From an uncultured Bacteroidaceae bacterium (GTDB taxonomy: Bacteria > Bacteroidota > Bacteroidia > Bacteroidales > Bacteroidaceae): DNA of 64,000 nucleotides. This document shows positions 25,158-60,379 of the stretch, piece after piece. A program made the translations under genes and the position numbers. The stretch is taken from positions 46,320-110,319 of the forward strand of contig CAYPZK010000002.1 of NCBI GenBank assembly GCA_964415385.1, given 5' to 3'. Numbering within the stretch: the stretch's first letter is position 1; each line of letters starts with the position of its first letter. Under the pieces are notes generated by a model, which saw only the letters and a program-made list of their open reading frames with translations, had not been told where the DNA came from and ran no database searches.

Positions 25158-25535
25158 ATGGCAAAGCGAATTTATGTGGAGGAGCGGGCGAAGGCTCACC
25201 TCCGGAGAGTGTTCAAGTGTTCGAACGTGATGGTGTGGAAAGCGCTGACGTTTGAGAGTGACAGCAAGCTGGCCCGCAGGATCCGCTACGTGGCCCTGAA
25301 GGAGCTGGGCGGCGTGGCGAGCTGGAAGCCTGCCGAGATGGAGACGACGCACGAGGAGGCGGAGAAGACGATGACGCAGACCTTCGGCGACAGGGTGAAG
25401 CTCGTTGCGAGCAAGGCGGAGCCTGAGGTGCTGGTATATGTGGACGGCAAGGTGGCTCGCCGCGAGAAATGCGAGAGCATCGCGTCGCTGATGTCGTTGC
25501 AGAACGAGGTGCAGTGTATGGCTATGAGCCTGTAG
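25158..25535 (+). CDS. hypothetical early protein (possible small DNA-binding protein upstream of the transposase)
   Basis: 125-aa ORF ending in TAG, 11 nt before the transposase ATG. Confidence 0.55.
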   Translation: MAKRIYVEERAKAHLRRVFKCSNVMVWKALTFESDSKLARRIRYVALKELGGVASWKPAEMETTHEEAEKTMTQTFGDRVKLVASKAEPEVLVYVDGKVARREKCESIASLMSLQNEVQCMAMSL

Positions 25536-25546
25536 GGAGGTGGCGT

Positions 25547-27664: not shown

Positions 27665-27802
27665 AAGACAACGCGTTTAGCATGGGACGGAAGCCCCGAG
27701 AGGCCGTAGGATGACAAACCGGAAAGACGGTTGGCAGCCCGGAAAGACGGGCATTTTAACGACAATCGAAAGCAATTCAAACAAGATAAAAGCAGCATTC
27801 AA

Positions 27803-28681
27803 ATGAGAATCACAGAAGACATCAAGCGCAGGATAGCGTCGGCGATAGAAGCCGACCGCAGGAACTATCCGAGCGACAACAAGCACGCCGTGAGCCTCGG
27901 CATCTCGGCGAGTGTGTACAACAGCATCAAAAAGGGCAACTGGGAGAAGCAGGTGAGCGACGCCGGCTGGGTGGGCATGGCCCGCCGGCTTGGCGTTACG
28001 CTTCACGAGGAGCAGCCATGGGCGGCTGCCGAGACGCCGACGTGGGTGTTCGTGAGCGAGCAGCTGCGGGTGTGCCAGGAGAGCGGTCTGAGCGCGATAC
28101 TGTGCGACATCCCGAACATCGGCAAGACGTTCACGGCCCGGGCATACGCCAAGAGCCACAGGAACGCCGTCTATATCGACTGCTCGCAGGTGAAGACGAA
28201 GCTGAAATTAGTGCGGAAGATCGCCAAGGAGTTCGGCGTGGGCAGCCTGGGCAGGTACAGCGACATCTACGACGACCTGGTGGAATACCTGCGGACGATA
28301 GACACGCCGCTGGTGATACTGGACGAGGCGGGCGACCTGCAATACGAGGCGTTCCTGGAGCTGAAAGCCCTGTGGAACGCGACGGAGCGTTGCTGCGGCT
28401 GGTACATGATGGGCGCGGACGGGCTGCGGGCCAAGATAGGCCGTAACGTGGAGAGCCTGAAGGTGGGCTATGCGGAGATGCTGAGCCGCTTCGGCGACAC
28501 GTTCAGCAGGGTTACGCCGGAGGACGAGCGCGAGCGCAGGAAGTTCCTGTTGGCGCAGGCCGCCATCATCGCGAAGGTGAACGCGCCGCAGGGCACGGAC
28601 GTGATGCGCATCGTGAACGCGACGGGCGGCGGCCTGAGGCGCGTATATACCGAGATAGAGAAACTGAAGAGAGAGGCGTAA
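27803..28681 (+). CDS. MuB-like AAA+ transposition ATPase
   Basis: ATG 27803 (MRITEDIKRR...). N-terminal HTH-like region. Walker A-like DIPNIGKTF and Walker B VILDEAGD. Confidence 0.75.
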   Translation: MRITEDIKRRIASAIEADRRNYPSDNKHAVSLGISASVYNSIKKGNWEKQVSDAGWVGMARRLGVTLHEEQPWAAAETPTWVFVSEQLRVCQESGLSAILCDIPNIGKTFTARAYAKSHRNAVYIDCSQVKTKLKLVRKIAKEFGVGSLGRYSDIYDDLVEYLRTIDTPLVILDEAGDLQYEAFLELKALWNATERCCGWYMMGADGLRAKIGRNVESLKVGYAEMLSRFGDTFSRVTPEDERERRKFLLAQAAIIAKVNAPQGTDVMRIVNATGGGLRRVYTEIEKLKREA

Positions 28682-33167: not shown

Positions 33168-33196
33168 AGAGCCGTTTTTTAGCGGCTCTATTTTTT
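33168..33196 (+). terminator. hairpin AGAGCCG-N8-CGGCTCT followed by ATTTTTT
   Basis: Read directly. The T run is present only on the plus strand. Confidence 0.5.
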
Positions 33197-34565
33197 ACAT
33201 ACTTCTCAATACCTTATCATTCTTGAAATAGAAGTAGATTGAAAGTCCGGGGTACTTGCGTTTGGCTTCATTTAGTGCTTCGTAAATGTCGGATGTCCTT
33301 TTTTCAAGTTCAAAGACAATTGCTTTAGCCCCTTGTTCCTTAAACGCTTTCTTCGCATACTTCTCAATGTTGTTGTGGCTGCCTGTAGCCTTTAATTCGG
33401 CAGGTGTTCCGTCCAGCGTGATGTCGTAGGTCTCCCCTACCGGTCTGTTCACTCCATGGAGGTATTCCACCTTGTGGCCGTTATCCGCAATAACCATACA
33501 CATATTGAGTTCTTTCTTGTATTTCTTCTTTTCTTGTTTTGAGGCTTTAGCTTCTGTGATGCGCTCTTTCTCTGTCATCACATAGCCATCGGCATTCTTG
33601 GAGTTGTAGGAATGTTCCCACTGCTTTTTGTCGTACTTGTGAATTTCACGTGCCAGAGCCTTGTCGATGCACCCATTGATGTACGGGCAGTTGTAGCAGT
33701 CCTTGACGCGGTTTTGGAAGAGGAAGCGCAGCCGGTCTTTGAGCGAGGGCTTGTAGAAGTCGCAACGTGCGCAGGAGGACGGGAAATACGGGTGGTCTTG
33801 GCTGAATGTCGCCCTGTCTTGCCCCGGATTGCCCGAGAGCCCCGGCTGTGGCTGTGAGGAGGCGGGAACGTCGGCCGGAATGTCGGTGGGCTGCTCGTCG
33901 GTGGACGAGAGCGAGCACTTGCAGTTCCACCGGTCGCCCGGCCTGTGCTGTTTCCAGAATGGGTCGTCGATGGGACGTATGGTGCCCCAGAAGATGCGGT
34001 GGTCGGCTCCTGGATGTGCGGAGGTGGAGGGCATCCACTTGAGGTTGGGGAGGACGTCGCGCTCGCGCTCGAACTGCTGCCAGTCGGCCGCCTGGTGAGC
34101 GCGGATGACGGCGGTGTCGTACTCCGTTTGGAACCAGGCGCGGCACTGGTGGGAGGCTATGGGCTGTATGTCCTTCACCCACTGCGAGAACGGCTTGAGG
34201 CTGCCGTCGGTGTTGAGTAGGCGTGCCGCGATGTCGCGCTGGAAGCGGTGCGTCTTGAAAGCCGCGAACACCTCGTCGGAGTGGCGCAGGGCGTGGTAGA
34301 AGTCGTCGTCGGGGTCGTCGGGTTGGAAACCCTCGGTGACGGCGAGGTCGAGGAACTGGCAGAACTCGCGCAGGAGGCCGGTCTCGAGATAGTCCTTTTT
34401 CCCGCCCCGCTTGGCGTAGATGTCCCGTAGGGCATGCAGCAGCACGTCGGCGTCGAAAGAGAAGCCGGAAGACGCCGGATTGTCGCTGTCGTAGTAGAGG
34501 TGGTTGACTACCAGTCTAAATCCGCCCCGTGCGGCGACGGGGCCCATGCGAAAAAACGCCGCCAC
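33195..34565 (-). CDS. Mu-F/SPP1 gp7-family head morphogenesis protein with a low-GC C-terminal nuclease-like module
   Basis: MuF core FQTEYDTAVIRAHQAADWQ...HPGADHRIFWGT...RPGDRWNCKCSL. The last ~150 aa show a compositional break and a YDITLDGTPAELK (D..ExK) pattern. The start may be 34547. Confidence 0.8.
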   Translation of the reverse strand: MAAFFRMGPVAARGGFRLVVNHLYYDSDNPASSGFSFDADVLLHALRDIYAKRGGKKDYLETGLLREFCQFLDLAVTEGFQPDDPDDDFYHALRHSDEVFAAFKTHRFQRDIAARLLNTDGSLKPFSQWVKDIQPIASHQCRAWFQTEYDTAVIRAHQAADWQQFERERDVLPNLKWMPSTSAHPGADHRIFWGTIRPIDDPFWKQHRPGDRWNCKCSLSSTDEQPTDIPADVPASSQPQPGLSGNPGQDRATFSQDHPYFPSSCARCDFYKPSLKDRLRFLFQNRVKDCYNCPYINGCIDKALAREIHKYDKKQWEHSYNSKNADGYVMTEKERITEAKASKQEKKKYKKELNMCMVIADNGHKVEYLHGVNRPVGETYDITLDGTPAELKATGSHNNIEKYAKKAFKEQGAKAIVFELEKRTSDIYEALNEAKRKYPGLSIYFYFKNDKVLRSM

Positions 34566-35914
34566 CAGTCCTTGAAGCCCTTTTTGGATTTGGGCGGGTT
34601 GGGAACGTCCTTGTGCTTGCCGTCATCGTTGGTGTCGCCGTCCGGCTCGTCGTCATCGTCATTGTCCTTGTGCTGTGCCGCCGCGAGCGCGGCCTGCGCC
34701 CGCTGCCTGTCGTCGATGCGCTGCTGCTCCTGCGCGGCTTTCTGCGCGTCGTAGTCCTTGGGCTTCTCCACGCCGAACTCCTCGTAGAGCCAGTCGTCGT
34801 CGACGGGGAGGGAGAAGTTCGTGCGGAGCTGCGTGAGTATGGACATCTTGGTGCTCATATCCACATCCTTCTGCTCTGGGAAGCAGAACTGTCCGCCCTT
34901 GGTGTCGATGCCCATGGCGGCGAAGATGTCCGCCATGTCGTAGTTGAGGATGTCGAGGATATAGAGGCGGTCGGACTGTGTGACCTTGTCCTCGACCTTC
35001 TTGTGTACGGTGCCGAGCGCCTGCGTGCCGTTCTCGGACGACTCGGTGGTGAGCGTGTTGCCGAGGATGAGCTTTGAGATCTCGTTGTTGCAGCGTTCGC
35101 AGAGTTTCTCATAGACCTCTGCGGAACCCGTCTTGTTGCCCGCCTCCACGAGGTTGAGTTCCGTGTCCTTGCCGTGAATGAACGTGGCGAGCGCGCCGAG
35201 CGAGTTGGCGTCCTCGAGCGCGCGCTTGCGGCTGTCCTCGTCATCGGTTTCGTAGGTGTATTCCTGTATGGGCATCCCGAAGACCTCGGAGAACTGCGCC
35301 CAGTCCGCTGTGGTGTTGCGCTTGTAGATGACCCATGGCGCGGCCTTGGCGAGCAGCCCGAGGTCGTCCTGCCCGCCCACGAAGAGGAGGTCGGGGTACT
35401 CGTCCCAGGAAGTGCCTGTGATGTCGGTCTGCTGTCGGAGGATGAGGTGGCGGACGGGGTCGACGTGCTTCCTTGGAATGAGGTCGTAGTCCACCCACTG
35501 TCCGTTGCGGTAGAACTGGAGGAGCGAGAAGCCCCAGAAGCGGGCGTCGAGGAGGTCGGCTATGCAGCGGTTGAACCACGGCGAGTGGATCTGCTCGTTG
35601 ACGCGGTCGTCGGGCTTGCCGTTGCGCCGGAACTCGATCTGCGAGCAGAGGACGGCGTTCTTGCGCTTCTCGATGACGCAGGAGAGGTGTGTGTCGATGA
35701 GGATGTCGGTGTAGAGGTCGTAGAGGCGCGAGCGCCGCGAGAAGTCGACGTCCTCGGCGGCGCGTATGGCCGTCATGAAGTCGGCGGTGTCGATGCCGAA
35801 TCGCTTGGGCTGCGTGAGGCGTATGACGGCGGGTTGCCGCTGCCCCGGACGTGGCACGTTGCCGCTGACGGTGATGCGCCCTTTTTGGTTATTGGAATTT
35901 CTTCGTTTGCTCAT
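34508..35914 (-). CDS. portal protein (DUF935 / Mu gp29-like)
   Basis: 468 aa, located between TerL/DUF1320 and MuF. Acidic C-terminal tail. Confidence 0.8.
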   Translation of the reverse strand: MSKRRNSNNQKGRITVSGNVPRPGQRQPAVIRLTQPKRFGIDTADFMTAIRAAEDVDFSRRSRLYDLYTDILIDTHLSCVIEKRKNAVLCSQIEFRRNGKPDDRVNEQIHSPWFNRCIADLLDARFWGFSLLQFYRNGQWVDYDLIPRKHVDPVRHLILRQQTDITGTSWDEYPDLLFVGGQDDLGLLAKAAPWVIYKRNTTADWAQFSEVFGMPIQEYTYETDDEDSRKRALEDANSLGALATFIHGKDTELNLVEAGNKTGSAEVYEKLCERCNNEISKLILGNTLTTESSENGTQALGTVHKKVEDKVTQSDRLYILDILNYDMADIFAAMGIDTKGGQFCFPEQKDVDMSTKMSILTQLRTNFSLPVDDDWLYEEFGVEKPKDYDAQKAAQEQQRIDDRQRAQAALAAAQHKDNDDDDEPDGDTNDDGKHKDVPNPPKSKKGFKDWWRRFFAWAPSPHGADLDW

Positions 35915-43139: not shown

Positions 43140-46100
43140 ATGAAACCTGTTCAGATTGAGTTTTTGATGAAGGGCAACCTGAAGGAAGGCATGATGGAGG
43201 CCCAGGGCGTGGCGGCGGGACTTGACGGCACGCTGAGCGGCTTGCGCAACACCCTTGCCGGACTGTTCGCGGCGGACAAACTGACTGACTTTGTGAGAAA
43301 GATCATGGACGTTCGCGGTGAGGTGGAGTCCTTGCAGATTTCCTTTGAGACGCTTGCGGGCGTGACCAAGGGTCGTGAGCTGTTCGGCGACATCAAGGAC
43401 TATGCGGTGAGTACTCCGATGATGATGCAGGATCTGGCAAAAGGCGCGCAGACCCTGCTTGCTTTCAACATAGAGGCGGAAAAGGTGATGCCCATACTGC
43501 GCGAGATAGGCGACATATCGATGGGCGACTCGCAGAAGTTCAATTCGCTCACCCTTGCGTTCGCCCAGATGTCGAGTACGGGCAAACTGATGGGTCAGGA
43601 TCTTTTGCAGATGATCAACGCCGGCTTCAACCCGCTCACCGTCATCGCCGAGAAAACCGGCAAGAGCATGAGCGAGCTGAAAGACGAAATGTCGGCCGGC
43701 AAGATAAGCGTGGAGATGGTGTCCGACGCGTTCGCCTCCGCCACGGCCGAGGGCGGCAAGTTCAACGGCATGCTGGAGAAGCAGAGCAAGGGCATGAAAG
43801 GTGCGATGAGCAACCTTGAGGGAGCCTGGGAAGACGCCTTGAACGGCATGGGCGAGAAAGGCGAAAGCTTCTTGGTGGACGTGATAGACCTGACGACCGA
43901 GGCGGTCAAGAACTTCGACAAGCTCGGAACCGCCATCCTTATGGTGGTCGCCGCCTACGGTGAGTACAAGGGCGTGCTTATGGCTGTACAGGCATACCAA
44001 AGCATGATAGCCAAGCAGAAGCAGACCATTGAGGCTGACCGCGTGAGCGAGTTGCAAGGGCTTGTGGACAAATACAAGGCTTCTCTTGATACGGAGGCCG
44101 TCAATGCCGAGACCGCCGCCACCCAAGCCAACACAGCCGCCAAGAACGGCAATGCGGCAGCCATCGACGCCGAGGTACGTGCCATGGAGGAGGAACTGCG
44201 TGCCAAAGTGGCCACAGCGGAGGCAAACTACAACGAGGCGACCAGCCAGGCGGCAGCGGCATCGCTGCGTGTCGATGACGCCAACGAAGCCGTAAGAGCC
44301 GCAGAGGAACAATACGAGGCCGTCTTGAAACTGGGTGACGGCGAGGCCATCGAGCGTGCGGAACTGGAACTGAACACCGCCGCGTCCGATGCCAATTCCG
44401 CCGCGAAGAATTTACAGGCGGCAAGGTCTGACGTGGCTGCCGCCGCAGAGCAGAAAGAGGCTGCCGCGACCAGGCTTTCCACTTTTCAGACGCAGGTCGA
44501 CACGATACAGAAGAACGCCAACACGAAGGCCACCGGCCTGTGGGCTGCCGCGACCAATCTTTGCACCAAGGCGGTGAATGGGCTGAAGGCGGCGTTCCTG
44601 TCAAATCCGTTCGGCATCGCCCTTGTCGCCATCACTTCCATCATCGGCTTGCTCTCAATGTTCTCGTCAGAGACGGACGACGCTTCGGACTCGCTGGATC
44701 GTTTCCGCAAGAAGGTGCTGGAGGAGCAGTCGCAGCTCAATTCCTATTATGCGGTGCTGACCAATGTGGAGAAAGGCTCCAAAAGCTACCAGGCCGCACT
44801 TGAGGGCATCAATACACTCGCGAGGGAATACAACCTCCAGCAGATAGGAGTCAATGACACGCTGGAGGAACAGAAACAGAAATACGACGCCCTGACTGAA
44901 GCCATCAGGCGGCAGGCGGCGGAGAAGACATTGTCGGAGGCCGTTTCCACAGCCAACGAGAACGCCATGAAAGCCGAGAAGGAAGCCATGGAAGACCTGA
45001 TGGATGCTGCCGGCGATGCCACCTACAAGACGGTGGAGCAGACCGTAGAGGATGTCGATGGCGTGTCCGTGTCGGTGAGTAAGGTTGTGGACGAGGCCAG
45101 CGCGAATATCCGGCAAATCACATCCGCCACATGGAACATGATCTCAACGGACGTGATGAGCCATTCGCAGCAGATTTCCGCGGCATTTGCCAAGTCGCAG
45201 GAGGATGGGGAGAAAGCCGTTGAGGACGAGGTCGCCACGATTGAGGGCATACTGCGGTCGCTGGGTGTGACGGACAAGGAGATAGAGGGCTTCCATGACG
45301 ACCTGTATGACTACGTGGAGACTTCCGCACAGGGTTTCAAGACCGCCTATTCGGAACTTGCCCGCACCAAGGCGCAGTTGCAGGGCATCGCCAACGCCAC
45401 GGAGGAGGCGAAGGAAACCGCCAACACCGCCATTGCGGACATGAACTACGAGCAGCTTGTCAAGGAGGCGCAAAGAGTGCAGGGCGAGATAGACAAGCTC
45501 AATGACAAGCCTGTCAAAGTCAAGACAGACAATACGGAGCTTGAGGAACTGAAATCGCTCCTTGAGCAGATAAACGGCCTTCTACCCCAAAAACTGACGG
45601 AAGGGTCGGAGGCAGACCTTTCGCAAAGGCTGAAAGACGCACAGGAAAAGCGAAGCAAGGCCCTCCCCGGCTCGAAGGAATGGAAGGATGCCAACAAGGA
45701 GGTGGGAAAACTTAACGCCCGTCTGACCAACTTACGCGGTCAGCACGCCGAGTCCACCGGCAAGGGCGGAAGCAAGAACAGCCTTGTGGAAAAGAGGCGC
45801 GAGCAACAGCGGGAGCGGCTTCGCCAGATTGAGGACATGGCTGTGGAGACCCGCCAGTTCGAGATTGACAAGATGAGTGAGGGAACGGACAAGACCCTTG
45901 CCCAGGCGAAACTTGACTATGACAAACGCAAGACGGAGATTCAGCGTTCCTATGAGGACTTGAAACAGGAAAAGATAGAGGCCGCCCGCAAGTTGTGGGA
46001 GGCCAACCCCAAGAACAAGGACAAGGTCTTTGATGCTTCCACAGTCGATACCGCATATACAGAAGAGGAACAGAAGAATTACCAGGCCGCCATTGCCGCC

Positions 46101-48353
46101 AACGAGAAAGAACGCGAGCAATCCACACTCGCGGTATATGAGGCGGAAGCGCAGGCGATGCGCGACTTCCTGAAGGAATACGGCAGCTATCAGCAGCAGA
46201 AACTGGCCATAGCGGAAGACTACGCCGAGAAGATAAAGAACGCGCAAACAGCGGGTGAGCGGAAGAGTCTGGAGAAAGAACGCGACAAGGCGTTGGAGCA
46301 GGTTGATGTGGAAGCGTTGAAGCAGAGCATCGACTGGGGTTCGCTGTTCGGCGAGTTCGGGGCTATGTTCAAGGATCAGCTGGAGCCTACGATAGCGAAA
46401 TTGCGCGGCATCACAAGGAGCGATGGCTTCAAGCAAGGCAGTGTTGAAGACCAGCAAATCGTGTATGGGCTGATCTCGAAGCTCGAGCAAAGCGCGACGG
46501 TGTGGGATGGCGACATCTTCAAGAAGGTGAGCGACGACATGGAGGCATATCAGCGTTCGATGCAGGAACTGATAGCCGCGCAGGAGACGGAGAAAAACGT
46601 GTTCGATGAAACCTCGGTAGCGTTGGAACAAGCCAGGTCTAACGTAAGGAACGCCGAACTTGCCGATGATAAGGACGCGAAGGCGGTATGGCAGGCGGAG
46701 GTGAACCGGCTGACCATGAAGCAGCAGGAAGCGGGCGAGCGGGTGCAGGCGTGCAGCCGCGCTGCAAACGAGGCGACGGTGAACCTGAAGAGCAGCGCGG
46801 ACAGGGCGAAGAACATGTTCGAGGGCTTGGAGAGTGCCATCAGCGGACTGACGAGCGGTACGCTGAAAGGTGTCGGGCAGAGCCTGATGCAGTTTGACAA
46901 ACTGTTCGGCGGCAGTGAGATCACGAAGAAAGTGGGCAATGCGTTGGCTTCCGGCGTGCAAGGATTGCTGGGCAAGGACAGCGGCGTGAGCAAGGCTCTT
47001 TCCAAGGCGTTGGGCGACACGGGCATGATAGGCGATATACTGAGCGCGGTGCTGGGCATTTTCGACGCGATAGCGGAGAGTGGCATCAGCGGCATTGTCA
47101 CGAGCCTCCAGGACACCATATTGGGAGCCGTGGAGGGATTGCTTGACGATGTGTTCAGCGGCGACATCATTAGCAAGCCCCTTGGGAACATGGCGGAACA
47201 CCTGAACCATATCCTTGACACGGTGAGTTTCGGAGGTTTCTCGAAACTGACGGGCTGGCTTGGCGACGGGGAGAGCGACAAGAACCTGGAGCGCGACCTG
47301 GAGCGGCTGAGCCAGAGCAACGACGACCTGAAACAGGCCATTGACAACCTGGCAGACGAGCTTGACGATGCGCACATGAGCGACGTGAGCGGCCTTTACG
47401 AGCAACAGAAGAAGAATATAGAGGAACTGGAGGCCAATGCGCAGGAAAGTATGCGACGCAGCGGTGCCGCCTATACGAACGGACACTGGTACAAAGCCTA
47501 TACCGACGGGCATCACTCCTCGAACCACAAGATCAACAAAGGCATGAGCAGTGCGGAGTGGGACGCCATCAGCGATCTGTTGGGGAAGAGTGTGCGGAGC
47601 GCCGGCGACTTCTGGGCGTTGTCGAGCAAGGAGATGTACGAGGTGGCCACCATGCTGACGAGCGAGTACACCCACATCAAGGACTTGGCGGATGACGGCT
47701 ATAAGGACGCGGCCCAGTTCATGGACGACTACATCGGCTACTGGAAGGAACTGGAGGAGATAGAGAACGCCTACAGGGAGAAGATGACCGGCATCTCGTT
47801 TGACACGGCGAAGAGTTCGTTCAACAGTCTGGTGAAAGACGTGAAGAACGGCACGAAGGAGATGATAGCCAGTGTGGACGACATGTTCGAGGACGCTATT
47901 CTGAACTGGCTGATGAGCGAGGAATACGGCGACCGCCTGCAACAGTGGTATGAGAAGTTCGCGGAATACATGCAGGGCGGGCTGAAGAAATGGGAGGCCG
48001 ACGAATTGCGGGCGTGGTACGGCGAGATCTTCGACGACATGAACAAGGAGCGCGATGCGGCGTATGACGCCGCGGGCATCGACCCCGACTCGGATGGCAC
48101 GACGCAAAGCGGGAAGAGCGGCAGTTTTGAGACGATGACCCAGGACCAGGGCACGAAGCTTGAGGGATTATTTACGAGCGGGCAGCAGCACTGGGCGAGC
48201 ATGGACGAATTGCTGCGGGGCATCAGCGACCGCTGGGGCGGCATGCTTGAAAGCCTTGGCGCGCTTGTGGAGAACACGAGCCATTGCGTGAGGCTGAAGG
48301 ACATCGCGGAGGACATAGAGAAGATCCGCAGGGACGGCATAAAAATGAGATAA
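43140..48353 (+). CDS. tail tape measure protein
   Basis: 1737 aa. Long Ala/Glu/Lys-rich helical protein following the chaperone pair. Confidence 0.85.
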   Translation: MKPVQIEFLMKGNLKEGMMEAQGVAAGLDGTLSGLRNTLAGLFAADKLTDFVRKIMDVRGEVESLQISFETLAGVTKGRELFGDIKDYAVSTPMMMQDLAKGAQTLLAFNIEAEKVMPILREIGDISMGDSQKFNSLTLAFAQMSSTGKLMGQDLLQMINAGFNPLTVIAEKTGKSMSELKDEMSAGKISVEMVSDAFASATAEGGKFNGMLEKQSKGMKGAMSNLEGAWEDALNGMGEKGESFLVDVIDLTTEAVKNFDKLGTAILMVVAAYGEYKGVLMAVQAYQSMIAKQKQTIEADRVSELQGLVDKYKASLDTEAVNAETAATQANTAAKNGNAAAIDAEVRAMEEELRAKVATAEANYNEATSQAAAASLRVDDANEAVRAAEEQYEAVLKLGDGEAIERAELELNTAASDANSAAKNLQAARSDVAAAAEQKEAAATRLSTFQTQVDTIQKNANTKATGLWAAATNLCTKAVNGLKAAFLSNPFGIALVAITSIIGLLSMFSSETDDASDSLDRFRKKVLEEQSQLNSYYAVLTNVEKGSKSYQAALEGINTLAREYNLQQIGVNDTLEEQKQKYDALTEAIRRQAAEKTLSEAVSTANENAMKAEKEAMEDLMDAAGDATYKTVEQTVEDVDGVSVSVSKVVDEASANIRQITSATWNMISTDVMSHSQQISAAFAKSQEDGEKAVEDEVATIEGILRSLGVTDKEIEGFHDDLYDYVETSAQGFKTAYSELARTKAQLQGIANATEEAKETANTAIADMNYEQLVKEAQRVQGEIDKLNDKPVKVKTDNTELEELKSLLEQINGLLPQKLTEGSEADLSQRLKDAQEKRSKALPGSKEWKDANKEVGKLNARLTNLRGQHAESTGKGGSKNSLVEKRREQQRERLRQIEDMAVETRQFEIDKMSEGTDKTLAQAKLDYDKRKTEIQRSYEDLKQEKIEAARKLWEANPKNKDKVFDASTVDTAYTEEEQKNYQAAIAANEKEREQSTLAVYEAEAQAMRDFLKEYGSYQQQKLAIAEDYAEKIKNAQTAGERKSLEKERDKALEQVDVEALKQSIDWGSLFGEFGAMFKDQLEPTIAKLRGITRSDGFKQGSVEDQQIVYGLISKLEQSATVWDGDIFKKVSDDMEAYQRSMQELIAAQETEKNVFDETSVALEQARSNVRNAELADDKDAKAVWQAEVNRLTMKQQEAGERVQACSRAANEATVNLKSSADRAKNMFEGLESAISGLTSGTLKGVGQSLMQFDKLFGGSEITKKVGNALASGVQGLLGKDSGVSKALSKALGDTGMIGDILSAVLGIFDAIAESGISGIVTSLQDTILGAVEGLLDDVFSGDIISKPLGNMAEHLNHILDTVSFGGFSKLTGWLGDGESDKNLERDLERLSQSNDDLKQAIDNLADELDDAHMSDVSGLYEQQKKNIEELEANAQESMRRSGAAYTNGHWYKAYTDGHHSSNHKINKGMSSAEWDAISDLLGKSVRSAGDFWALSSKEMYEVATMLTSEYTHIKDLADDGYKDAAQFMDDYIGYWKELEEIENAYREKMTGISFDTAKSSFNSLVKDVKNGTKEMIASVDDMFEDAILNWLMSEEYGDRLQQWYEKFAEYMQGGLKKWEADELRAWYGEIFDDMNKERDAAYDAAGIDPDSDGTTQSGKSGSFETMTQDQGTKLEGLFTSGQQHWASMDELLRGISDRWGGMLESLGALVENTSHCVRLKDIAEDIEKIRRDGIKMR

Positions 48354-48357
48354 GGCA

Positions 48358-48831
48358 ATGGCACAGGAGAAAGACATATTGAGCGGCCAGGTGCTGGTGA
48401 ACGGCGTGGATCTGTGGACGGCCTACGGAGTTTTCCTCAGGGAGGAGCGCAAGGGCGGTCATGACAACCTGAACGCGTTGCTGGCACCGGCGAAGATGAA
48501 GAGCCATGTGTCGGTGAACATCAGGGAGCAGGACGGCGAGGAGATGAGTGCGAAGTTGGACGCACGGAGCGAAGGCAGGGACGTGACGCTTCATTTCGCC
48601 CTGCGTGCGGAAAGCCCTTCGGCTTTTGTTAGCGGTTATGCCAGTTTTGTGAGACTCCTGAAGGAGGGCGAGGACGGCTGGCTGACATTGAAGTTCCCTA
48701 CGCTTGGGCTGGAGATGAAGGTGTACGCCGTGGAGTGGTCGAGCTTTACGGCCATCAGCAACCTGTGGGTGAGCGGCAAGCAGTGCGGGGCTTTCAAGGT
48801 GAAATTCAGGGAACCCGTATCCTCGTTCTAA
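48358..48831 (+). CDS. distal tail protein-like
   Basis: 157 aa, immediately after the tape measure. Positional call. Confidence 0.5.
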   Translation: MAQEKDILSGQVLVNGVDLWTAYGVFLREERKGGHDNLNALLAPAKMKSHVSVNIREQDGEEMSAKLDARSEGRDVTLHFALRAESPSAFVSGYASFVRLLKEGEDGWLTLKFPTLGLEMKVYAVEWSSFTAISNLWVSGKQCGAFKVKFREPVSSF

Positions 48832-48855
48832 CGGTATTCAAACGGCATTGGAATC

Positions 48856-51800
48856 ATGATAACGATATACGGAAGCGACGGCACGCAGAAGTGCAAGATA
48901 GAGCCGGGGAGCAGCAGCCGGCAGGACAAGGTGTTGCAGGGCGACAATGTGCTGTCGCTCTCGTTCACGCATTACGCCTTTTTGGAACTTGACGTGAACG
49001 ACTGGTGCGACTTCGAGGGCGAGCGTTACTGGCTGATGGAGAAGTACCTGCCCAAGGAGAAGAGCAAGGGCGAGTGGGAATACGACGTGAAGCTGTACGG
49101 CATCGAAAGCCTTGTGAAGCGCTTCCTCGTGCTGAACAATACGGACGGGCAGAACGAGGCCGTGTTCACGCTGACCGCGCCCGCAAGCGAGCATGTGCGC
49201 TTAATTGTGGAGTGCATCAACAACGGGATGGACAACACGACCAACTGGAAGGTTGGCGAGGTGGTGGAGACGGAGAATCTGACCATCGACTACGAGGGAA
49301 CGTACTGCGACGAGGCGTTGAAGAAGGTGGCGGAAGCTGCGGAAACGGAATGGTGGATAGAGGGAAATACGGTGAATGTAAGCCGCTGTGAGCATGGAGA
49401 GGAACTGACGCTGCGCTACGGGGAGAGCCTGACCTCGCTGGAACGCGACGAGGCGGACAATGTGAAGTTCTACACGCGCCTGTTCCCGATAGGGAGCAGC
49501 CGGAACATCGACGCGGCGAAGTACGGGCACAGCCGCCTGCAGCTGCCGGACGGTGCGAAGTATGTGGACATGGACGACCTTGTGGCGAAATACGGCGTCA
49601 TCCACCACTACGAGCAGGAGTCGTTCAGCGACATCTATCCGAGACGGACCGGCACGGTGAGCGCCGTGCGGCAAGAAGAGACCAAGGACACGGACGGCAA
49701 CGCTTTCACGATATATTATTTCAAGGACGAGGGCTTGACTTTCGATCCCAACGACTACGAGATAGCCGGATTGGTGAAGCATGTGGCGTTTGAGAGCGGA
49801 GAGCTGGCTGGACGTGATTTCGAGGTGAATTATGACAGCCAGACGAAGGAGTTTGAGATTATCACCACGTGGCCCTACGACGACAACACACAGTTGCCAG
49901 GCGGCAGCCTTGTGCCGGCGGCGGGCAACACGTATATCCTGTGGAACATCCGCATGCCGGACGAATACTACACACTGGCTGAGCAGGAATTCAAGGAGGC
50001 TGTCGATGCCTACAACCAAAAGCACTGCATAGACGCCAGCGTGTACAAAGCCCCGACGAATCCCAAGTGGGTGGAACGCACAGGCGCGGATTTGTATGTG
50101 GGCCGCAGGGTGCGTTTGGAGAGCGCGGAGTTCTTCCCCGAGACGGGCTACAGGAGCAGCCGCATCACGCGTGTGACAAGGAAAGTGGACGACCCCGCGC
50201 AGATGGACTTGGAGATCAGCGATGCGGTGGGTACGGGCATGATGACGAAGATAGAGGACAGTATCGATGACGCGAAGAGTTATGCCGGTAGTGTGGTGGG
50301 GACGCTGAACGTGCCGGATGTCGTCCGCAGCTGGGACACCACTCCGGCGACGGACACGAACATATACAGCGCGAGGCGCTCGCATCTGGAGTTCCTGAGC
50401 AAGAAGCGCGCCGACAGGGCGAAGAAGCGCATCACCTTTGACGAGGGCATCGGGCTTGGCGACTTTGAGAGCGGGAAGCAAGGCGGCGAGATGGACGGCG
50501 AGGGCAACGGCGAGTTGCTGTCGCTGATTGTAAGGACATTCCTGCGCGACCCCAACTTCCAGAGCGGCTTCACGGGCAAGGGCTGGAAGCTGTGGATGGA
50601 GGAGGGCTTGTCGCGTCTTGAGATAGACCGTCTGACGGTAAGGCAGATCATGACCGTGTTCGAGCTTGTCATAGACCGCATCAGAGCCGTTGGTGGGCAA
50701 ATCGTGGTGAGTGCGGCCAACGGCAAGATAAAGACCGTGGAGGACACGGGTGATGCATACAAGCTGACCTTTGAGGACGGAAACTATTTTCAGGCGCACG
50801 ACCTGATGCGCTGCCAGGTGCGTTTTAAGGGCACCGGCATCCGCTCGTACTGGGTGGAGGTGGCCAGCGTGGACGGGGAATCGGTGACGATAGCCAAGAG
50901 CGAGTTTGCGGACAGCGACACCAGCAACACCACGCCGCAGGTGGGCGACGAGGTGGTGTTGTTCGGGAACACAGAGGACACGCTGCGGCAGAACCTTATC
51001 ACCATATCGGCGACGGAGGACGGCCAGCCGCGCATCGACATACAGGACGGCGTGAAGTCAAAGAGCCTGGCGGACAGCCTGCGCACAAGGCTGGGCAACC
51101 TTGACGGTATCAGCGACCCGTGGTTTGGCGACAACCAGCCACACGGCAACGGCCTGTATGCGGACAACGCCTATTTGCGCGGCACGTTCCTGCTCTCGAC
51201 GGGCGAGGACGTGAAGACGCTGTTTGAGGTCATTGAGGGCAAGATCCGCAGCAGCGTGGAGGCGTTGCGTCAGGACTTTGTGGAGGACCGGGGCTTTCTG
51301 AGCAACCCGACGTTCGGGGACGGCCTGAGCAAATGGCAGACGGAGAGCAAGACGATCTTCTGGCTGGCAGGGAGCAAGTGGATATGGGCGAACGGTGCGG
51401 CGCTGTCGAAGAAAGGCGACGGCGCTACGCTGATGGAGGACGACGGGCGGATTGTGGTGCGCCTGCGTGACGGCTACATCGTGCAGAAGCTGGCGAACAT
51501 GCAGAGCGTGCCGAACTTCACGGAGAACAGCGACGGGGAGAAAGAGCCCTGCGCGGTGTATGTGAGCTTCATGTACCGCTGCGCGAAGGCGGGAACGCTG
51601 AAAGTGGCTTTCGACGGCGTGGACAAGACAGGCTTCGAGAACTTCAACAGCATGGAAGTGGAAGAGGAAATAGCCGTGACGGAGGGCTACCGGCAGTGGA
51701 CGGGCAGCGGCCTGTGGAACGGGACGGGCGACTTCAAGCTGAGCTTCACGGGCGAGATGACGCTGTACCTGGTTGTGCTGAGCACGGACAGGGTGGAGGC

Positions 51801-52947
51801 GCTGACGTACAAGTACCGGACACTGCTGGAGCAGAGCGAGAAACTGGTGAGGATAGCAGCGCAGAACTTCGACCAGGACGGGAACGTCTTGAGCGAGAGC
51901 GGCATCATGGTGAAAGCGAGTGGCAGTGGCATCTATGCGCAGACAGCGGACGGAAAGGTGGCGCTCATCGGCGTGGCCGTGACGGAGACCGGCAGCGACG
52001 GTACGGAGAAAACCGTGATCAAGCTGACGGCGGACAACATCCAATTAGAGGGTTTGGTGACGGCGAACGGGAACTTCAAGATACTGGAGGACGGGAGCAT
52101 CGAGGCCGTGAACGGCAAGTTCGGCGGGGAGGTGAACGCCACGAGCGGTAAGATAGGGGGCTTCACGATCAAGGAAAACAGCATAGATACCGACGATGAC
52201 GGCGTGCTGAAGATAGGCGGCGAGGACTTCAACACGCGCTTCGGCACGACGAGCGGTGAGAAGACGGTGCAGGTCCAGGGCGGCATTGGTCAGAGCATAC
52301 CTGCGGAGTACCAATTCGCGTACAAGGAGAACAACCGTCTGACGGTGCGCAACACGGGTACGGGGAAATACGACTGGCTGAACATCCTCGTGGCGAACGT
52401 GATGGACATCGACTATTACAAGAGCACGAGCAGCACGGTGGCGGCCCGTAACCGCTACGGCTACCAGTTCGCGATGTGCGGGAGTGGCCATGTGGTGCAG
52501 GACGGCATCGTGGAGGGCATGTGCCTCGACGTGATAGACAACTATACGGCGAACAACCAGTACCAGCTGATCCAGCCGCCGATGTGGTGCAACCGCATCT
52601 GCGTGGACAGCGGGGACTACACGAACTGCATCGTGATACTGCCCGACAAATACTCGCTGTGGTCGTGCATGGGGTGTGGCTTTTTGACGACGGATACGGC
52701 GAAGAAATTCTCGTTCAGGATAGACATCATCAACACGGGCGGCAAGACGGTGTACGTGGCTGGCTGGAACAGCAGCAAGGTGTCGAGCGGCGAGAAGGTG
52801 TTTGAGAACACGGACTTTCCGATGGTGTACAAGAACGGGAGCCAGGGGACGGACATGACGGACTTCGCGCTGGGGTCGAACAAGGTGATGAGCCTGTTGC
52901 TGGTGTATGACGGGACGGACTACAAGGCATTCATATTGAATTCATAA
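48856..52947 (+). CDS. large tail tip / tail-associated (Tal-like) structural protein
   Basis: 1363 aa. The N-terminal ~350 aa resemble siphovirus tail-tip proteins and the position fits. Confidence 0.6.
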   Translation: MITIYGSDGTQKCKIEPGSSSRQDKVLQGDNVLSLSFTHYAFLELDVNDWCDFEGERYWLMEKYLPKEKSKGEWEYDVKLYGIESLVKRFLVLNNTDGQNEAVFTLTAPASEHVRLIVECINNGMDNTTNWKVGEVVETENLTIDYEGTYCDEALKKVAEAAETEWWIEGNTVNVSRCEHGEELTLRYGESLTSLERDEADNVKFYTRLFPIGSSRNIDAAKYGHSRLQLPDGAKYVDMDDLVAKYGVIHHYEQESFSDIYPRRTGTVSAVRQEETKDTDGNAFTIYYFKDEGLTFDPNDYEIAGLVKHVAFESGELAGRDFEVNYDSQTKEFEIITTWPYDDNTQLPGGSLVPAAGNTYILWNIRMPDEYYTLAEQEFKEAVDAYNQKHCIDASVYKAPTNPKWVERTGADLYVGRRVRLESAEFFPETGYRSSRITRVTRKVDDPAQMDLEISDAVGTGMMTKIEDSIDDAKSYAGSVVGTLNVPDVVRSWDTTPATDTNIYSARRSHLEFLSKKRADRAKKRITFDEGIGLGDFESGKQGGEMDGEGNGELLSLIVRTFLRDPNFQSGFTGKGWKLWMEEGLSRLEIDRLTVRQIMTVFELVIDRIRAVGGQIVVSAANGKIKTVEDTGDAYKLTFEDGNYFQAHDLMRCQVRFKGTGIRSYWVEVASVDGESVTIAKSEFADSDTSNTTPQVGDEVVLFGNTEDTLRQNLITISATEDGQPRIDIQDGVKSKSLADSLRTRLGNLDGISDPWFGDNQPHGNGLYADNAYLRGTFLLSTGEDVKTLFEVIEGKIRSSVEALRQDFVEDRGFLSNPTFGDGLSKWQTESKTIFWLAGSKWIWANGAALSKKGDGATLMEDDGRIVVRLRDGYIVQKLANMQSVPNFTENSDGEKEPCAVYVSFMYRCAKAGTLKVAFDGVDKTGFENFNSMEVEEEIAVTEGYRQWTGSGLWNGTGDFKLSFTGEMTLYLVVLSTDRVEALTYKYRTLLEQSEKLVRIAAQNFDQDGNVLSESGIMVKASGSGIYAQTADGKVALIGVAVTETGSDGTEKTVIKLTADNIQLEGLVTANGNFKILEDGSIEAVNGKFGGEVNATSGKIGGFTIKENSIDTDDDGVLKIGGEDFNTRFGTTSGEKTVQVQGGIGQSIPAEYQFAYKENNRLTVRNTGTGKYDWLNILVANVMDIDYYKSTSSTVAARNRYGYQFAMCGSGHVVQDGIVEGMCLDVIDNYTANNQYQLIQPPMWCNRICVDSGDYTNCIVILPDKYSLWSCMGCGFLTTDTAKKFSFRIDIINTGGKTVYVAGWNSSKVSSGEKVFENTDFPMVYKNGSQGTDMTDFALGSNKVMSLLLVYDGTDYKAFILNS

Positions 52948-52978: not shown

Positions 52979-55900
52979 ATGGCAACGATGACAGACGAGG
53001 AGCGCAGTGCGCTGAAGAGTGAACTGAAGAACGAGGTTCTGGAAGAGATAAAGAGCGGGAGCAACGACATAACGGAACTTGATACGGTCGATACGCTTGA
53101 CAATGTCAAGAGCTTGCCCGCCTTACAGGATGAGACGCTTGTTCTTGCGCCAATATCTTTGTTGGGAAAACCAGCGACTGAAGCGGCTGAGACGGCTAAC
53201 GCGGCGGCTAAAGTGGCAAACGCGGCAGCGGAGAAAGCCGACGATGCGGCGGATACGGCTGTCCATGCGGCGAGTGCGGCCAACGATGCGGCGGAATCGG
53301 CGCAGAAAGTGGTGAGTGCCGCCGTGGTGGTGAGCGGAACGGGCGAGAAGAGCGTGACGCAGGATGGCAATGACAACGTGGCGAGCGGCGACAACTCGGT
53401 GGCGTTCGGGCAGAGCAATACCGTGAGCGGAAAGAACTCGGTGGCCCTTGGCCAGGACAACGAGGCGACGGGCAGCGAGAGCATCGCGCTGGGTGACGAC
53501 AATACGGCGAGCGGCAACAATGCGATAGCAGAGGGTCACCTGACGGTGGCGAGCGGGAGCAGCAGCCACTCGGAGGGCAACAGCACGGAGAGTGCGGGCA
53601 AGTACAGCCATGCGGAAGGCCTTGGAACGAAGGCCGTAGGCGTTGCGAGCCATGCCCAGGGCCAGTACAACGTGGGAAACGATGACACCTTGGACGAGGT
53701 TGGCATGGGCACGTCGGACACGGATCGGAAGAATGCCGAGGAGACGAAGACGGACGGCAAGAAATACCTTGTGGGCGTTGGCGGCTACGACGGCACGAAC
53801 GCGGGTGCGGACGGTGTGGAGAGCGTGCAGGAGGTGATAGAAGGCATGGAGAGCGCGGACGAGAAAGCCCTGTCGGGCATGACGGTCCGCTTTGACGGCT
53901 TTGTGTCCGGCACCACGATTTCTGGGCAGGCTTCGCGCGCCACGACGAGCGTGTATTATGACACGGAGAACAAGCGGTTCGTGTACAAGACGGAGACGGG
54001 TACGATGGTGACGGCATGGGGCGACGACACGGACTTGTACATGAATGCGGACCGCACCGAGATACTGAAGGACAGGTGCTACCTGCTGGACGGTACACTG
54101 TATGCGTGGAGCGAAAAGGAGGGCACGCTTGCGGAGGCAGGCGGCAGCGGAAGTGGCAGCGGCTTCTACAACGTGACGCAAGAGCAGCCATTGGCAGACG
54201 GCACATACTACACGAAGGACACGGCCATCGCAGCCCTGGCGGACGCCAAGGTCAAGGACGAGGACAAGCCCGGCATGATAGTGACCTTTGAGCAGAGCGC
54301 GGGCGTGTGGGCGGACTACCGTTTTGTCGGGAGCAGCATCGACAGTTTCCTGTTGCCCGCAAGCTGGGAGGAATACGGCGGCAAGATAAAGAGCGTGTCG
54401 CTGAACGGCACGGACATCACGCCCGACAGCAACGGCAATGTGGCTCTCGCGATTGACCAAATCAGCGTGGACGAGAGCCTGGACGAGAGCAGCACCAATC
54501 CCGTGCAGAATGCCGTCGTGGCAAGCAAGATAAACGAGATCAGCGACGCGGCGGTCGGCGGTGTGGAAGTCATATCGGACGACGAGAAGAACACGCTCAA
54601 CATCCTCAACAAGAAAGGCACGGTGATAGCCAGCGCGGAGTTCACGGGCGGAGGCGGCAGCGGCACTTCGACCGCGAGCCGCATCGTCCTGACGGCGGCA
54701 CTCGACAAGACACAGGTCAAGGAGGGCGGCACGGCGGAACTCACTTACAGTTACAACCACGTGAACAGCGACAACGAGGCGGACGGCATCAAGGCCGACA
54801 TCACCGTGACCATACAACGCGGCACGACCAAGACCTACGAGCAGACCATCAAGGACGTTAGTGCGGGAACATACACACTTGACGTTTCGGAATATCTGCT
54901 TGCGGGTACGATGGACATCTATGTGAAAGCCGTCGCCACGACCGCCGAGGGCACGCAGCAGACGAAGCAGGCGTATGTGAGTTTGCAGGTCATCACCCTT
55001 ACGCTCACTTCAAGTTATAATCTCGGCACCAATATCGCACAAGGCGGCTACAAGAACACTGACACGATAGAGATACCGTTCACCATCACGGGCAGCGGCA
55101 CGAAGGACGTATCGATGTACCTGGACGGCGGCACGACCCCGACCGTCCAGACGATTAACAAGAGCGGCACGGTCAACGGATCATTCACCATCCAAGGCTC
55201 GGCACTTACCGCAGGGCGGCACACCGTGCAATTGGTGGCGGAGCGCAGCGGCCTGAAGTCGGACAGCATCTTCATCGATATCCTGAAAGCAGGTAACGAC
55301 GCGGCGTTTGTGGGCGTGAAATACACCGACACGGACGGCACGATACTGACGGGCGACGACATCACGCCGACGATCAAGGCGGCGCAGTACGAGACCATGA
55401 GCTTCCAGTACATCGCATACGACCCCGACACCACGCCCGCCACGGTGGAGGTTTGGCTCAACTCGAAACTAAGCCAGACCATCAACGCGCCGCGCACGAT
55501 GCAGACCTACACCAACCGCCCGACGGAGCAGGGAACGCAGACACTGGAGTTGAAAATCGGCAGCGTGAGCCGGACGGTGAGCGTGAACGTGGTGGAAAGC
55601 AGCATCGACATCAGCGAGGCGACCTACGGCTTGGTTGCGAAGTTGAGCGCGGCAGGCAGGAGCAACGGTGAGGCCGACCCTGCCGTCTGGGAAAGCGGCG
55701 ACATCAAGACCACGTTCAGCGGGATGGACTGGAGCAGCAACGGCTGGACGGGCGACGCGCTGAAACTGACGAACGGTGCAAAGGCCGTGATAGGCTACCA
55801 GCCGTTCAAGAGCGACGTCAAGAGCACGGGCCTGACGGTGGAGGTGACGATGCGCGTGAGCAACGTGATGACGCGCACCGCTCCCGTGTTGAGCTGCATC

Positions 55901-60379: not shown

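Follow-up and report, generated by a model that had tools for sequence, protein, structure and literature searches.

A probable self-diversifying giant tail fibre with a CotH kinase-fold module in a Hankyphage-like prophage of gut Bacteroidales

Phage proteins of about 2000 amino acids (aa) that are targets of diversity-generating retroelements (DGRs) and combine CotH with LamG (and leucine-rich repeat, LRR) modules are already known. Wu et al. (2018) listed CotH and Laminin_G_3 as 'primary motifs' of their category f1 of DGR targets, which are ~2000 aa long and probably belong to phages (PMC5758913), and Roux et al. (2020) reported a viral DGR target of 2284 aa with a CotH-like kinase (PC_00012; bioRxiv 10.1101/2020.04.01.020958). 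Benler et al. (2021) described the fusion of a CotH kinase and a hypervariable C-type lectin, found in phages, as 'currently unstudied' (PMC8008677), while domain group 3 of Macadangdang et al. (2024) comprises proteins of >2000 aa in which CotH active-region motifs (5JDA) occur together with LRRs and carbohydrate-binding motifs (bioRxiv 10.1101/2024.11.15.621889). CotH is unmentioned in two papers on Hankyphage, one of them PMC6199706, and our literature searches found no experimental work on phage CotH and nothing relevant on CotH in combination with crAss. Here we analyze a gene of this type in a window of 64,000 nucleotides (nt) from an uncultured Bacteroidaceae bacterium (assembly GCA_964415385.1, contig CAYPZK010000002.1, positions 46,320 to 110,319 of the forward strand; all coordinates below are those of the window). 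The gene (52979..60379, + strand) is an open reading frame (ORF) with an ATG start that encodes 2466 aa, and we estimate a probability of roughly 75% that its product is the giant, self-diversifying tail fibre of a Hankyphage-like prophage in gut Bacteroidales.

The protein resembles the published class in its great length, its C-terminal variable repeat (VR), the presence of CotH, Laminin_G_3, LRR and carbohydrate-binding motifs and its prophage context. A preceding interpretation from the sequence alone (the sequence-only reading) had considered a CotH-like module in a DGR-diversified phage fibre to be undescribed, which was wrong, given that four papers published from 2018 to 2024 report this family. 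In these papers, however, the motifs are presented as weak or mixed, and they contain neither a family-wide analysis of catalytic residues nor a YadA-type insert or relatives without a DGR. The new elements of the present locus are minor and consist of the YadA-type insert, the host with high guanine-cytosine (GC) content, the truncated reverse transcriptase (RT), the invariant active site, the DGR-less relatives and the exchange of cassettes at both ends of the protein.

The DGR target of Hankyphage p00 (BK010646.1 31489-38226, 2245 aa) is 66% identical to the 2466-aa protein over aa 397-2466 and has the same order of modules, with immunoglobulin (Ig)-like, LamG, CotH, LRR-like and C-terminal VR domains. 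The neighbouring genes also correspond, namely tape measure, hub, minor tail protein, target, template repeat (TR), RT and an ORF labelled 'Avd', and so does the Mu-like genome plan with MuA and MuB, a minus-strand block of MuF, portal and terminase genes, a protease and a capsid gene. The p00 homologue has been called a tail fibre and was diversified by its own DGR in culture (Hankyphage literature), and it was found by mass spectrometry in particles precipitated with polyethylene glycol (PEG; PMC12135933). In contrast to p00, the fibre encoded in the window is 221 aa longer, p00 has no counterpart of its YadA-type beta-roll (aa 119-262) or of the module after it (aa 263-396), the host flank has 58% GC and is not that of a classical Bacteroides, and the RT gene has an in-frame stop. 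The tape measure protein comprises 1737 aa, compared with 1455 aa in p00, from which a tail of proportionally greater length can be expected. At the protein level, identities to p00 amount to ~60-78%, and the nucleotide similarity to Hankyphage probably stays below the genus level (>70%).

We think that the gene is best explained as coding for the distal tail fibre, or receptor-binding protein, of a Hankyphage-type prophage, a Mu-like transposable siphovirus, because of its position in the tail module, the synteny and sequence identity with p00, the hallmarks of a DGR, the fibre-type modules and the swapping of N- and C-terminal parts among relatives. The sequence-only reading had likewise interpreted the product as a phage fibre or receptor-binding protein of mosaic build that is diversified by a DGR, an interpretation that fits the location of the gene 3' of genes for tape-measure, hub and Tal-like proteins and the synteny with Hankyphage. 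The extent of the ORF is borne out by the ORF list and the translation, and the sequence strings that had been quoted were all located where that reading had placed them. An unbroken frame of 7.4 kb in DNA with 58-60% GC is not a product of chance. The profile phrog_14959 matches the protein from end to end (2062 bits), and tblastn searches with it matched dozens of phage records. The domain order that had been deduced from the translation was recovered almost everywhere, with the qualification that the LRR matches stayed below threshold and the lectin fold of the VR domain found no confirmation.

The central module of the fibre (aa ~1120-1600; 56336..57778, + strand) has the fold of the CotH atypical kinases. 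An AlphaFold2 model of the segment reached a predicted TM score (pTM) of 0.81, with 238 residues having a predicted local distance difference test value (pLDDT) >= 90, and a Foldseek search against the PDB returned CotH of Bacillus cereus (5JDA/5JD9) as sole significant matches (E 3e-9, probability 1.00, target TM 0.69), followed by other atypical kinases (PI3K, HipA/HipT, CtkA) at E > 0.08. In BFVD, 18 viral proteins with CotH fold were matched at E <= 1e-3, several of which are already named CotH or spore-coat-like and belong to gut siphoviruses, crAss-like phages and Bacillus phage G. Comparison of the family profile with Bacillus CotH (5JD9_A) by hhalign gave an E-value of 7.6e-5. A phmmer search with aa 1100-1640 among 5.8 billion proteins led to proteins of ~414 aa annotated with PF08757 (E 3e-11 to 2e-4), and 18 of the 32 aligned relatives match PF08757 themselves (best E 1.3e-27), which connects the module to Pfam CotH transitively. 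Sequence searches with the CotH segment alone, the family profile, the Pfam-CotH relative P0040 or a CotH-only profile did not reach 5JD9. The spore-coat kinase CotH of Bacillus (5JD9/5JDA; PF08757) and the fibre module have the atypical kinase fold, the D-x4-N loop and the D-x-D metal site in common, whereas their sequence identity is ~12% and the one is a free coat protein of 360 aa, the other an internal part of a 2466-aa fibre. The nearest kin of the module outside of fibres are the stand-alone relatives P0040-P0054 (~414 aa), which pass the Pfam CotH threshold and whose N-terminus, by eye, has a hydrophobic, signal-peptide-like consensus (MKKK..LK....VLA...L.GA).

In the hhalign alignment, VD1442-QRAK-N1447 of the fibre is placed on FD-GFVH-N and YY-D1464-G-D1466 on PW-D-Y-D of Bacillus CotH. 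The codons of these residues are located at 57302-57304 (D1442), 57317-57319 (N1447), 57368-57370 (D1464) and 57374-57376 (D1466) on the + strand. The residue numbers of B. subtilis CotH were mapped through a presumed sequence of the protein; it was used as bait for the true 5JD9_A, to which it aligns without gaps, and it has Asp at positions 227 and 250, which is a uniform offset of one residue from D228 and D251 of the literature. By this tight correspondence we infer that D1442, N1447 and D1464 are equivalent to CotH D228, N233 and D251. The B. subtilis CotH variants D228Q and D251A are catalytically dead (PMC7821199). Among the aligned relatives, wherever the position was covered, D1442 was found in 29/29, N1447 in 27/28, D1464 in 26/26 and D1466 in 27/27 sequences, and two lysines were invariant as well (K1190 29/29, K1234 30/30). 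Conservation of both motifs extends to the fibre ORFs recovered from genome loci, which are 45-83% identical: all 38 contain D-x4-N (36 as VDQRAKN and 2 as VDQFAKN), and D-x-D (YYD[GK]DT) was located in 36 of them, while the regular expression had no match in L042 and L043, the two most divergent ORFs. The ~414-aa stand-alone CotH proteins have kept both catalytic motifs, too. Because the catalytic motifs are so strictly conserved, we argue for an enzymatic activity: the module is a genuine CotH-fold domain with an intact catalytic constellation, is probably catalytically competent, and would act as phosphotransferase rather than as a dead scaffold. The signal-peptide-like N-terminus of the stand-alone relatives suggests that secreted CotH proteins may have been the evolutionary source of the module.

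Relatives of the fibre were surveyed by scanning one genome per species with a single-sequence query, which yielded 47 loci. Their named hosts are Bacteroidales (Bacteroides, Phocaeicola, Prevotella, Hoylesella, Hallella, Xylanibacter, Muribaculaceae and Duncaniella) apart from two metagenome-assembled genomes (MAGs) labelled as Firmicutes. The latter contain the two best matches, with 83% identity in the CotH segment (L002, CAYSJX010000001.1, 43.5 kb, 'Oscillospiraceae' MAG; L003, CAVDAU010000106.1, 8.4 kb, 'Streptococcaceae' MAG), and are probably cases of phage contigs that were mis-binned, since all other named hosts are Bacteroidales. All 31 full-length ORFs (2219-2419 aa) contain the core, which extends from aa ~397 to the C-terminus. 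Module swaps among homologous fibres, for which the sequence-only reading had suggested a survey, were observed at both ends. At the N-terminus, a segment of ~60 aa (52979..53158, + strand) that may anchor the fibre at the tail tip is conserved with 37-56% identity in most of the 31 full-length relatives and replaced by other N-termini of several unrelated types in L006/L007/L018/L028, L027 and L043. At the other end, the C-terminal ~600 aa of L002, L027 and L038 are 37-50% identical to those encoded in the window, with values of 37-44% for the exchanged C-terminal domain, compared with 56-83% identity of their CotH modules, which suggests that the C-terminal binding domain may be exchanged as a cassette.

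An RT gene is located within 1 kb downstream of the fibre gene in ~17 of the loci. In the window, the VR (60199..60311, + strand) covers aa 2407-2445 at the end of the fibre and is 89% identical to the TR of the same length (113 nt; 60606..60718, + strand), which contains 25 adenines; 12/12 mismatches between the two repeats are at TR adenines. Sixteen codons of the TR have an A at position 1 or 2, and 11 codons, which cover aa 2415-2439, are AAY. An RT gene (60936..62240, + strand; RVT_1 E 1.5e-13, phrog_1423 E 1.5e-105) starts 0.2 kb 3' of the TR and is followed by a conserved ORF of 162 aa (62253..62741, + strand) with matches to DUF4376 (29.3 bits) and phrog_19239 (E 9e-70). Copies of this ORF with 60-65% identity are found 3' of the RT in relatives as well, and the p00 counterpart is labelled Avd in the supplement of PMC12135933. 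The 162-aa protein gave no match to a solved Avd structure and is not recognisable as canonical Avd, and the window contains no Avd-like ORF between VR and RT. DGRs of this type may have a non-canonical accessory protein, or the assignment may be wrong. The system resembles the one of Bordetella phage BPP-1, where the C-terminal receptor-binding surface of Mtd is likewise rewritten by adenine mutagenesis and TR and RT adjoin the target gene, yet neither a recognisable Avd nor a match to C-type lectins was found for the fibre in the window. Mtd is, moreover, a small (~380 aa), single-purpose protein. In a Phyre2 survey by Benler et al., the Hankyphage target was not grouped with Mtd-like proteins (PMC6199706).

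The VR is part of a putative ligand-binding domain (aa ~2186-2466; 59534..60376, + strand) at the C-terminus. A model of aa 1851-2466 (616 aa) computed with AlphaFold2 had a pTM of 0.85, with pLDDT < 50 over the variable residues. The region in front of the VR-bearing domain (58529..59533, + strand) was modelled as beta-sandwich modules that weakly resemble carbohydrate-binding modules (CBMs); Foldseek matches of the C-terminal model were weak throughout (CBM35/Xyn30D 3.9e-4; CBM51 and gingipain K2 adhesin ~1e-2). Between the CotH module and the beta-sandwiches, aa ~1665-1850 (57971..58528, + strand) probably form a divergent LRR region. LRR families are the only ones in Pfam that match this part in the query and in 8/9 relatives, as the sequence-only reading had anticipated, but the scores of LRR_4 and LRR_EndoS (17-21 bits, E 4e-4 to 8e-3) do not reach the cutoffs of 27-28 bits. 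LRRs have been reported for the family of CotH-bearing DGR targets (bioRxiv 10.1101/2024.11.15.621889).

The N-terminal half of the fibre consists of modules typical for stalks, spacers and lectins. The putative anchor is followed by an Ala-rich stretch (aa 61-118; 53159..53332, + strand), whose composition (41% Ala) agrees with the predicted coiled-coil stalk, while the match to Alanine_zipper (E 0.025) is below threshold; comparable Ala-rich stretches occur in p00, L002, L010 and L034. The adjacent YadA-head-type left-handed beta-roll with its connector (53333..53764, + strand) comprises 8 repeats in a perfect 14-residue register and matches YadA_head (PF05658) with 51.8 bits at a cutoff of 25 (aa ~127-238, nt ~53357-53692), in line with the adhesin-head repeats recognized earlier, and also LbR_Ice_bind (29.3 bits). 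None of the 31 full-length relatives in the BLAST survey contained this block, and a scan of IMG/VR with the insert gave just two weak partial matches, both outside of the repeats. Its closest relatives are tail spike or fibre proteins from phages of Flavobacterium and Verrucomicrobia and from a crAss-like phage, and one of them carries the Peptidase_G2 (intramolecular chaperone) domain. The block belongs to a huge superfamily of repeats (24,478 proteins at E <= 1e-3), and proteins with Peptidase_G2 and DUF2793 as well as annotated phage tail spikes are among the best matches. YadA-head modules, whether in phage spikes and fibres or in trimeric autotransporter adhesins, have the same 14-residue register and the same Pfam YadA_head match. 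Unlike the adhesins, the fibre has neither a YadA anchor nor an autotransporter context, and the block is inserted near the N-terminus of a Hankyphage-type fibre.

Beta-rich spacer modules (53765..55738, + strand), covered by phrog_24896 and phrog_9915 and by weak Pfam matches (Big_7, BatD and PPC at E 0.01-0.1), connect the beta-roll to the lectin domain. In the BLAST survey, aa 263-396 of the spacer were common to a subset of relatives, while aa 397-920, which are probably Ig-like, were conserved in all. The LamG or concanavalin-A-like lectin domain (aa 946-1089; 55814..56245, + strand) matches Laminin_G_3 (PF13385) significantly, with 31.9 bits at a cutoff of 27.6 (E 1.8e-7) over profile positions 13-149 of 151, and agrees with the LamG block seen before. 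Both CotH, by fold and profile, and LamG thus returned significant matches.

Taken together, we propose that the short conserved N-terminus would dock the fibre to the tail tip, downstream of the Tal-like protein, and that the Ala-rich coiled coil and the YadA-type beta-roll, grafted in this copy only, form a presumably trimeric stalk. This stalk would be followed by the Ig-like spacers, the LamG lectin, the CotH kinase fold, the probable LRR and the CBM-like beta-sandwiches, and end in a ligand-binding tip, in which ~16 variable codons could be rewritten by the DGR, starting at the TR and passing through error-prone cDNA to the VR. Rewriting of the VR would alter the binding specificity and thereby the host range. 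By analogy to the role of CotH in spore-coat patterning (PMC7821199), we favour a setting in which the CotH module would act during assembly, in the ATP-rich cytoplasm of the host, and phosphorylate the fibre itself or tail proteins next to it; the main alternative is that it might act on a component of the host envelope at adsorption. A working kinase on the virion would represent a new functional class of enzymatic tail fibres, which we regard as a doubtful proposition.

Several observations weigh against this interpretation or parts of it. The score for Pfam CotH is below the gathering score of 23.8 bits, both with the whole protein (14.2 bits) and with the segment (18.7 bits, E 0.0014), the alignment spans just profile positions 157-251 of 322, and the hhalign probability for the relation to Bacillus CotH was only 62%; the assignment to CotH made in the sequence-only reading therefore stands by fold and profile comparison but not by its Pfam score. 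Activity of the CotH kinase, its substrate and its source of ATP are entirely inferred. ATP is also scarce outside of cells. Tail location and host-range role are putative both for the fibre and for its Hankyphage homologue: the PEG-precipitated sample also contained the non-structural proteins Gam, a transposition protein and thymidylate synthase (PMC12135933), and Hankyphage particles produced in the laboratory were mostly tail-less and non-infectious (Hankyphage literature). With the whole 616-aa C-terminal model as query, no C-type-lectin fold was among the top 50 Foldseek matches, and a family profile of the last 282 aa had no match in PDB or Pfam. Since fold and profile searches were negative, the label of a DGR lectin derives from the literature, where the VR domain is named C-type lectin (PMC6199706) or 'CLec3' (PMC5758913).

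The state of the DGR likewise argues against a fibre that is diversified at present. Codon 35 of the RT gene (61038-61040) is an in-frame TAG, which leaves an intact ORF only from a GTG start at 61071 to 62240. Apart from codon 35, which is CAG in p00 and encodes Gln in 12/17 homologous RTs, the gene is collinear with the 434-codon RT of p00. Recoding of TAG to Gln was considered and rejected, given that the window contains no tRNA, a further phage ORF ends in TAG and the large phage ORFs are all intact when read with the standard code. The stop is probably a nonsense mutation or a sequencing error. Because of the premature stop, diversification may now be frozen in this copy, in a lineage in which the DGR was active in the past. 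In addition, at least 8 loci with 4.7-5.5 kb of downstream sequence have no RT (L015, L019, L024, L025, L036, L039, L044 and L046; fibres of 2244-2332 aa, mostly from Muribaculaceae and Prevotella). Within the 1.5 kb searched, no TR was found in the RT-less loci tested, and L015 keeps the 'Avd'-like ORF without an RT. As at least 8 relatives lack a nearby RT, the CotH fibre also exists without a DGR, and diversification by a DGR is not integral to the fibre.

Among the alternatives, the one that survives best does not concern the fibre as such but the role of its CotH module, which could be a non-catalytic binding or scaffold domain and serve as a second receptor-binding site in a purely adhesive, multi-lectin fibre. 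CotH invasins of Mucorales bind GRP78 or integrin of their hosts (PMC9973265), binding-type domains (LamG, LRR-like and CBM-like) adjoin the module on both sides, little ATP would be available to a virion in the gut lumen, and the sub-threshold Pfam score points to strong divergence. However, the presence of D-x4-N in 38/38 ORFs and of D-x-D in the 36 in which it was located can hardly be understood unless the module is catalytic or at least binds nucleotides or metal, and the GRP78-binding motif of the fungal proteins is a surface peptide that is unrelated to the active site (PMC9973265). We consider a non-catalytic module possible, though not probable.

For Hankyphage, Benler et al. proposed 'bacteriophage adherence to mucus', where the variable domain and the lectins would bind mammalian mucus glycans and the DGR would tune diffusion in mucus (PMC6199706). 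Ig-like, LamG and CBM-like modules are indeed present in the fibre, and Hankyphages of different host species can differ solely in the VR (PMC6199706), an observation that fits a function in host range equally well. On the other hand, mucus-binding Ig domains are elsewhere found on the capsid, as in Hoc of T4 (cited in PMC6199706), and not in the tail-tip slot, the gene occupies the canonical position of a receptor-binding protein, and the DGR of BPP-1, the paradigm of these systems, switches the host receptor (PMC6199706). Mucin binding is, furthermore, conjectural, and we regard this explanation as improbable. Slightly weaker still is the idea of Roux et al. that the protein is a kinase effector that manipulates host signalling, e.g. 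in division or dormancy, with the variable domain targeting different bacterial proteins, for which the kinase fold with its intact predicted active site, the predicted proximity of kinase and VR in the folded protein (bioRxiv 10.1101/2020.04.01.020958) and the indirect nature of the tail assignment can be cited. Such an effector is very unlikely in view of the gene position in the late tail module, where it immediately follows the Tal-like gene in every relative with such a gene, the N-terminal anchor types that co-vary between lineages, the fibre architecture with its stalk of coiled coil and beta-roll, its Ig-like spacers and its lectin/CBM modules, the secreted appearance, judged by eye from the N-terminal consensus, of the nearest non-phage CotH relatives, and the sheer size of a 2466-aa, probably trimeric protein.

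The tail-fibre reading, which we prefer, places the gene at the end of a tail module (43140..52947, + strand; TMP_3 E 6e-25, weak Prophage_tail, phrog_6305 'tail protein' and phrog_22546) that encodes the tape measure (43140-48353, 1737 aa), a small hub or Dit-like tail protein (48358-48831, 157 aa) and a Tal-like minor tail protein (48856-52947, 1363 aa), all on the + strand. The Mu-like transposable prophage extends from ~23-25 kb onward and further contains genes for a MuA-type transposase (25469-27664), a MuB-like protein (27731-28681), a MuF-like protein and portal on the minus strand (33195-35914), a head protease and a capsid-region protein. The inversion of the head module was dropped as an anomaly, p00 having the same minus-strand block. 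The left end of the prophage lies between the gene for a TPR protein (20976-22268) and the transposase gene (25469), and by analogy with the 42.8-kb p00, the right end would be located beyond the window. Positions 1 to ~22,000 are bacterial chromosome with prfA, purM-like, PatB-type C-S lyase, sulfhydrylase, GT2 glycosyltransferase and flippase genes. PrfA is identical to one NCBI entry (P0172) and has its nearest named neighbours in Bacteroides/Bacteroidaceae MAGs (82-86% identity), and the host is an uncultured high-GC lineage of Bacteroidales. Host flank (1-22300) and prophage (23000-64000) have 58.1% and 58.4% GC, respectively, while Hankyphage loci from Bacteroides have 52-55% and values of 39% to 58% are found in other relatives. 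In its composition, the prophage seems to be adapted to a Bacteroidales host that is unusually GC-rich.

Prophages of the Hankyphage type belong to the most widespread temperate phages in Bacteroidales of the human gut, and the host range is presumably determined by their DGR target. The window does not introduce a new concept, but it sharpens the question of what a kinase-fold domain does in a tail fibre. The core that bears CotH is retained even in lineages without a DGR, whereas the stalk or anchor and the binding domain are swapped as cassettes. Based on the conservation of the catalytic motifs, the persistence of the core without a DGR and the exchange of the termini, we argue that the kinase module may have an essential, catalysis-dependent role in the fibre. 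If this were true, the fibre would phosphorylate a component of the host envelope during adsorption or its own tail proteins during assembly, in contrast to depolymerase fibres, which degrade polymers, and a DGR-variable domain beside the kinase would steer the choice of substrate or receptor.

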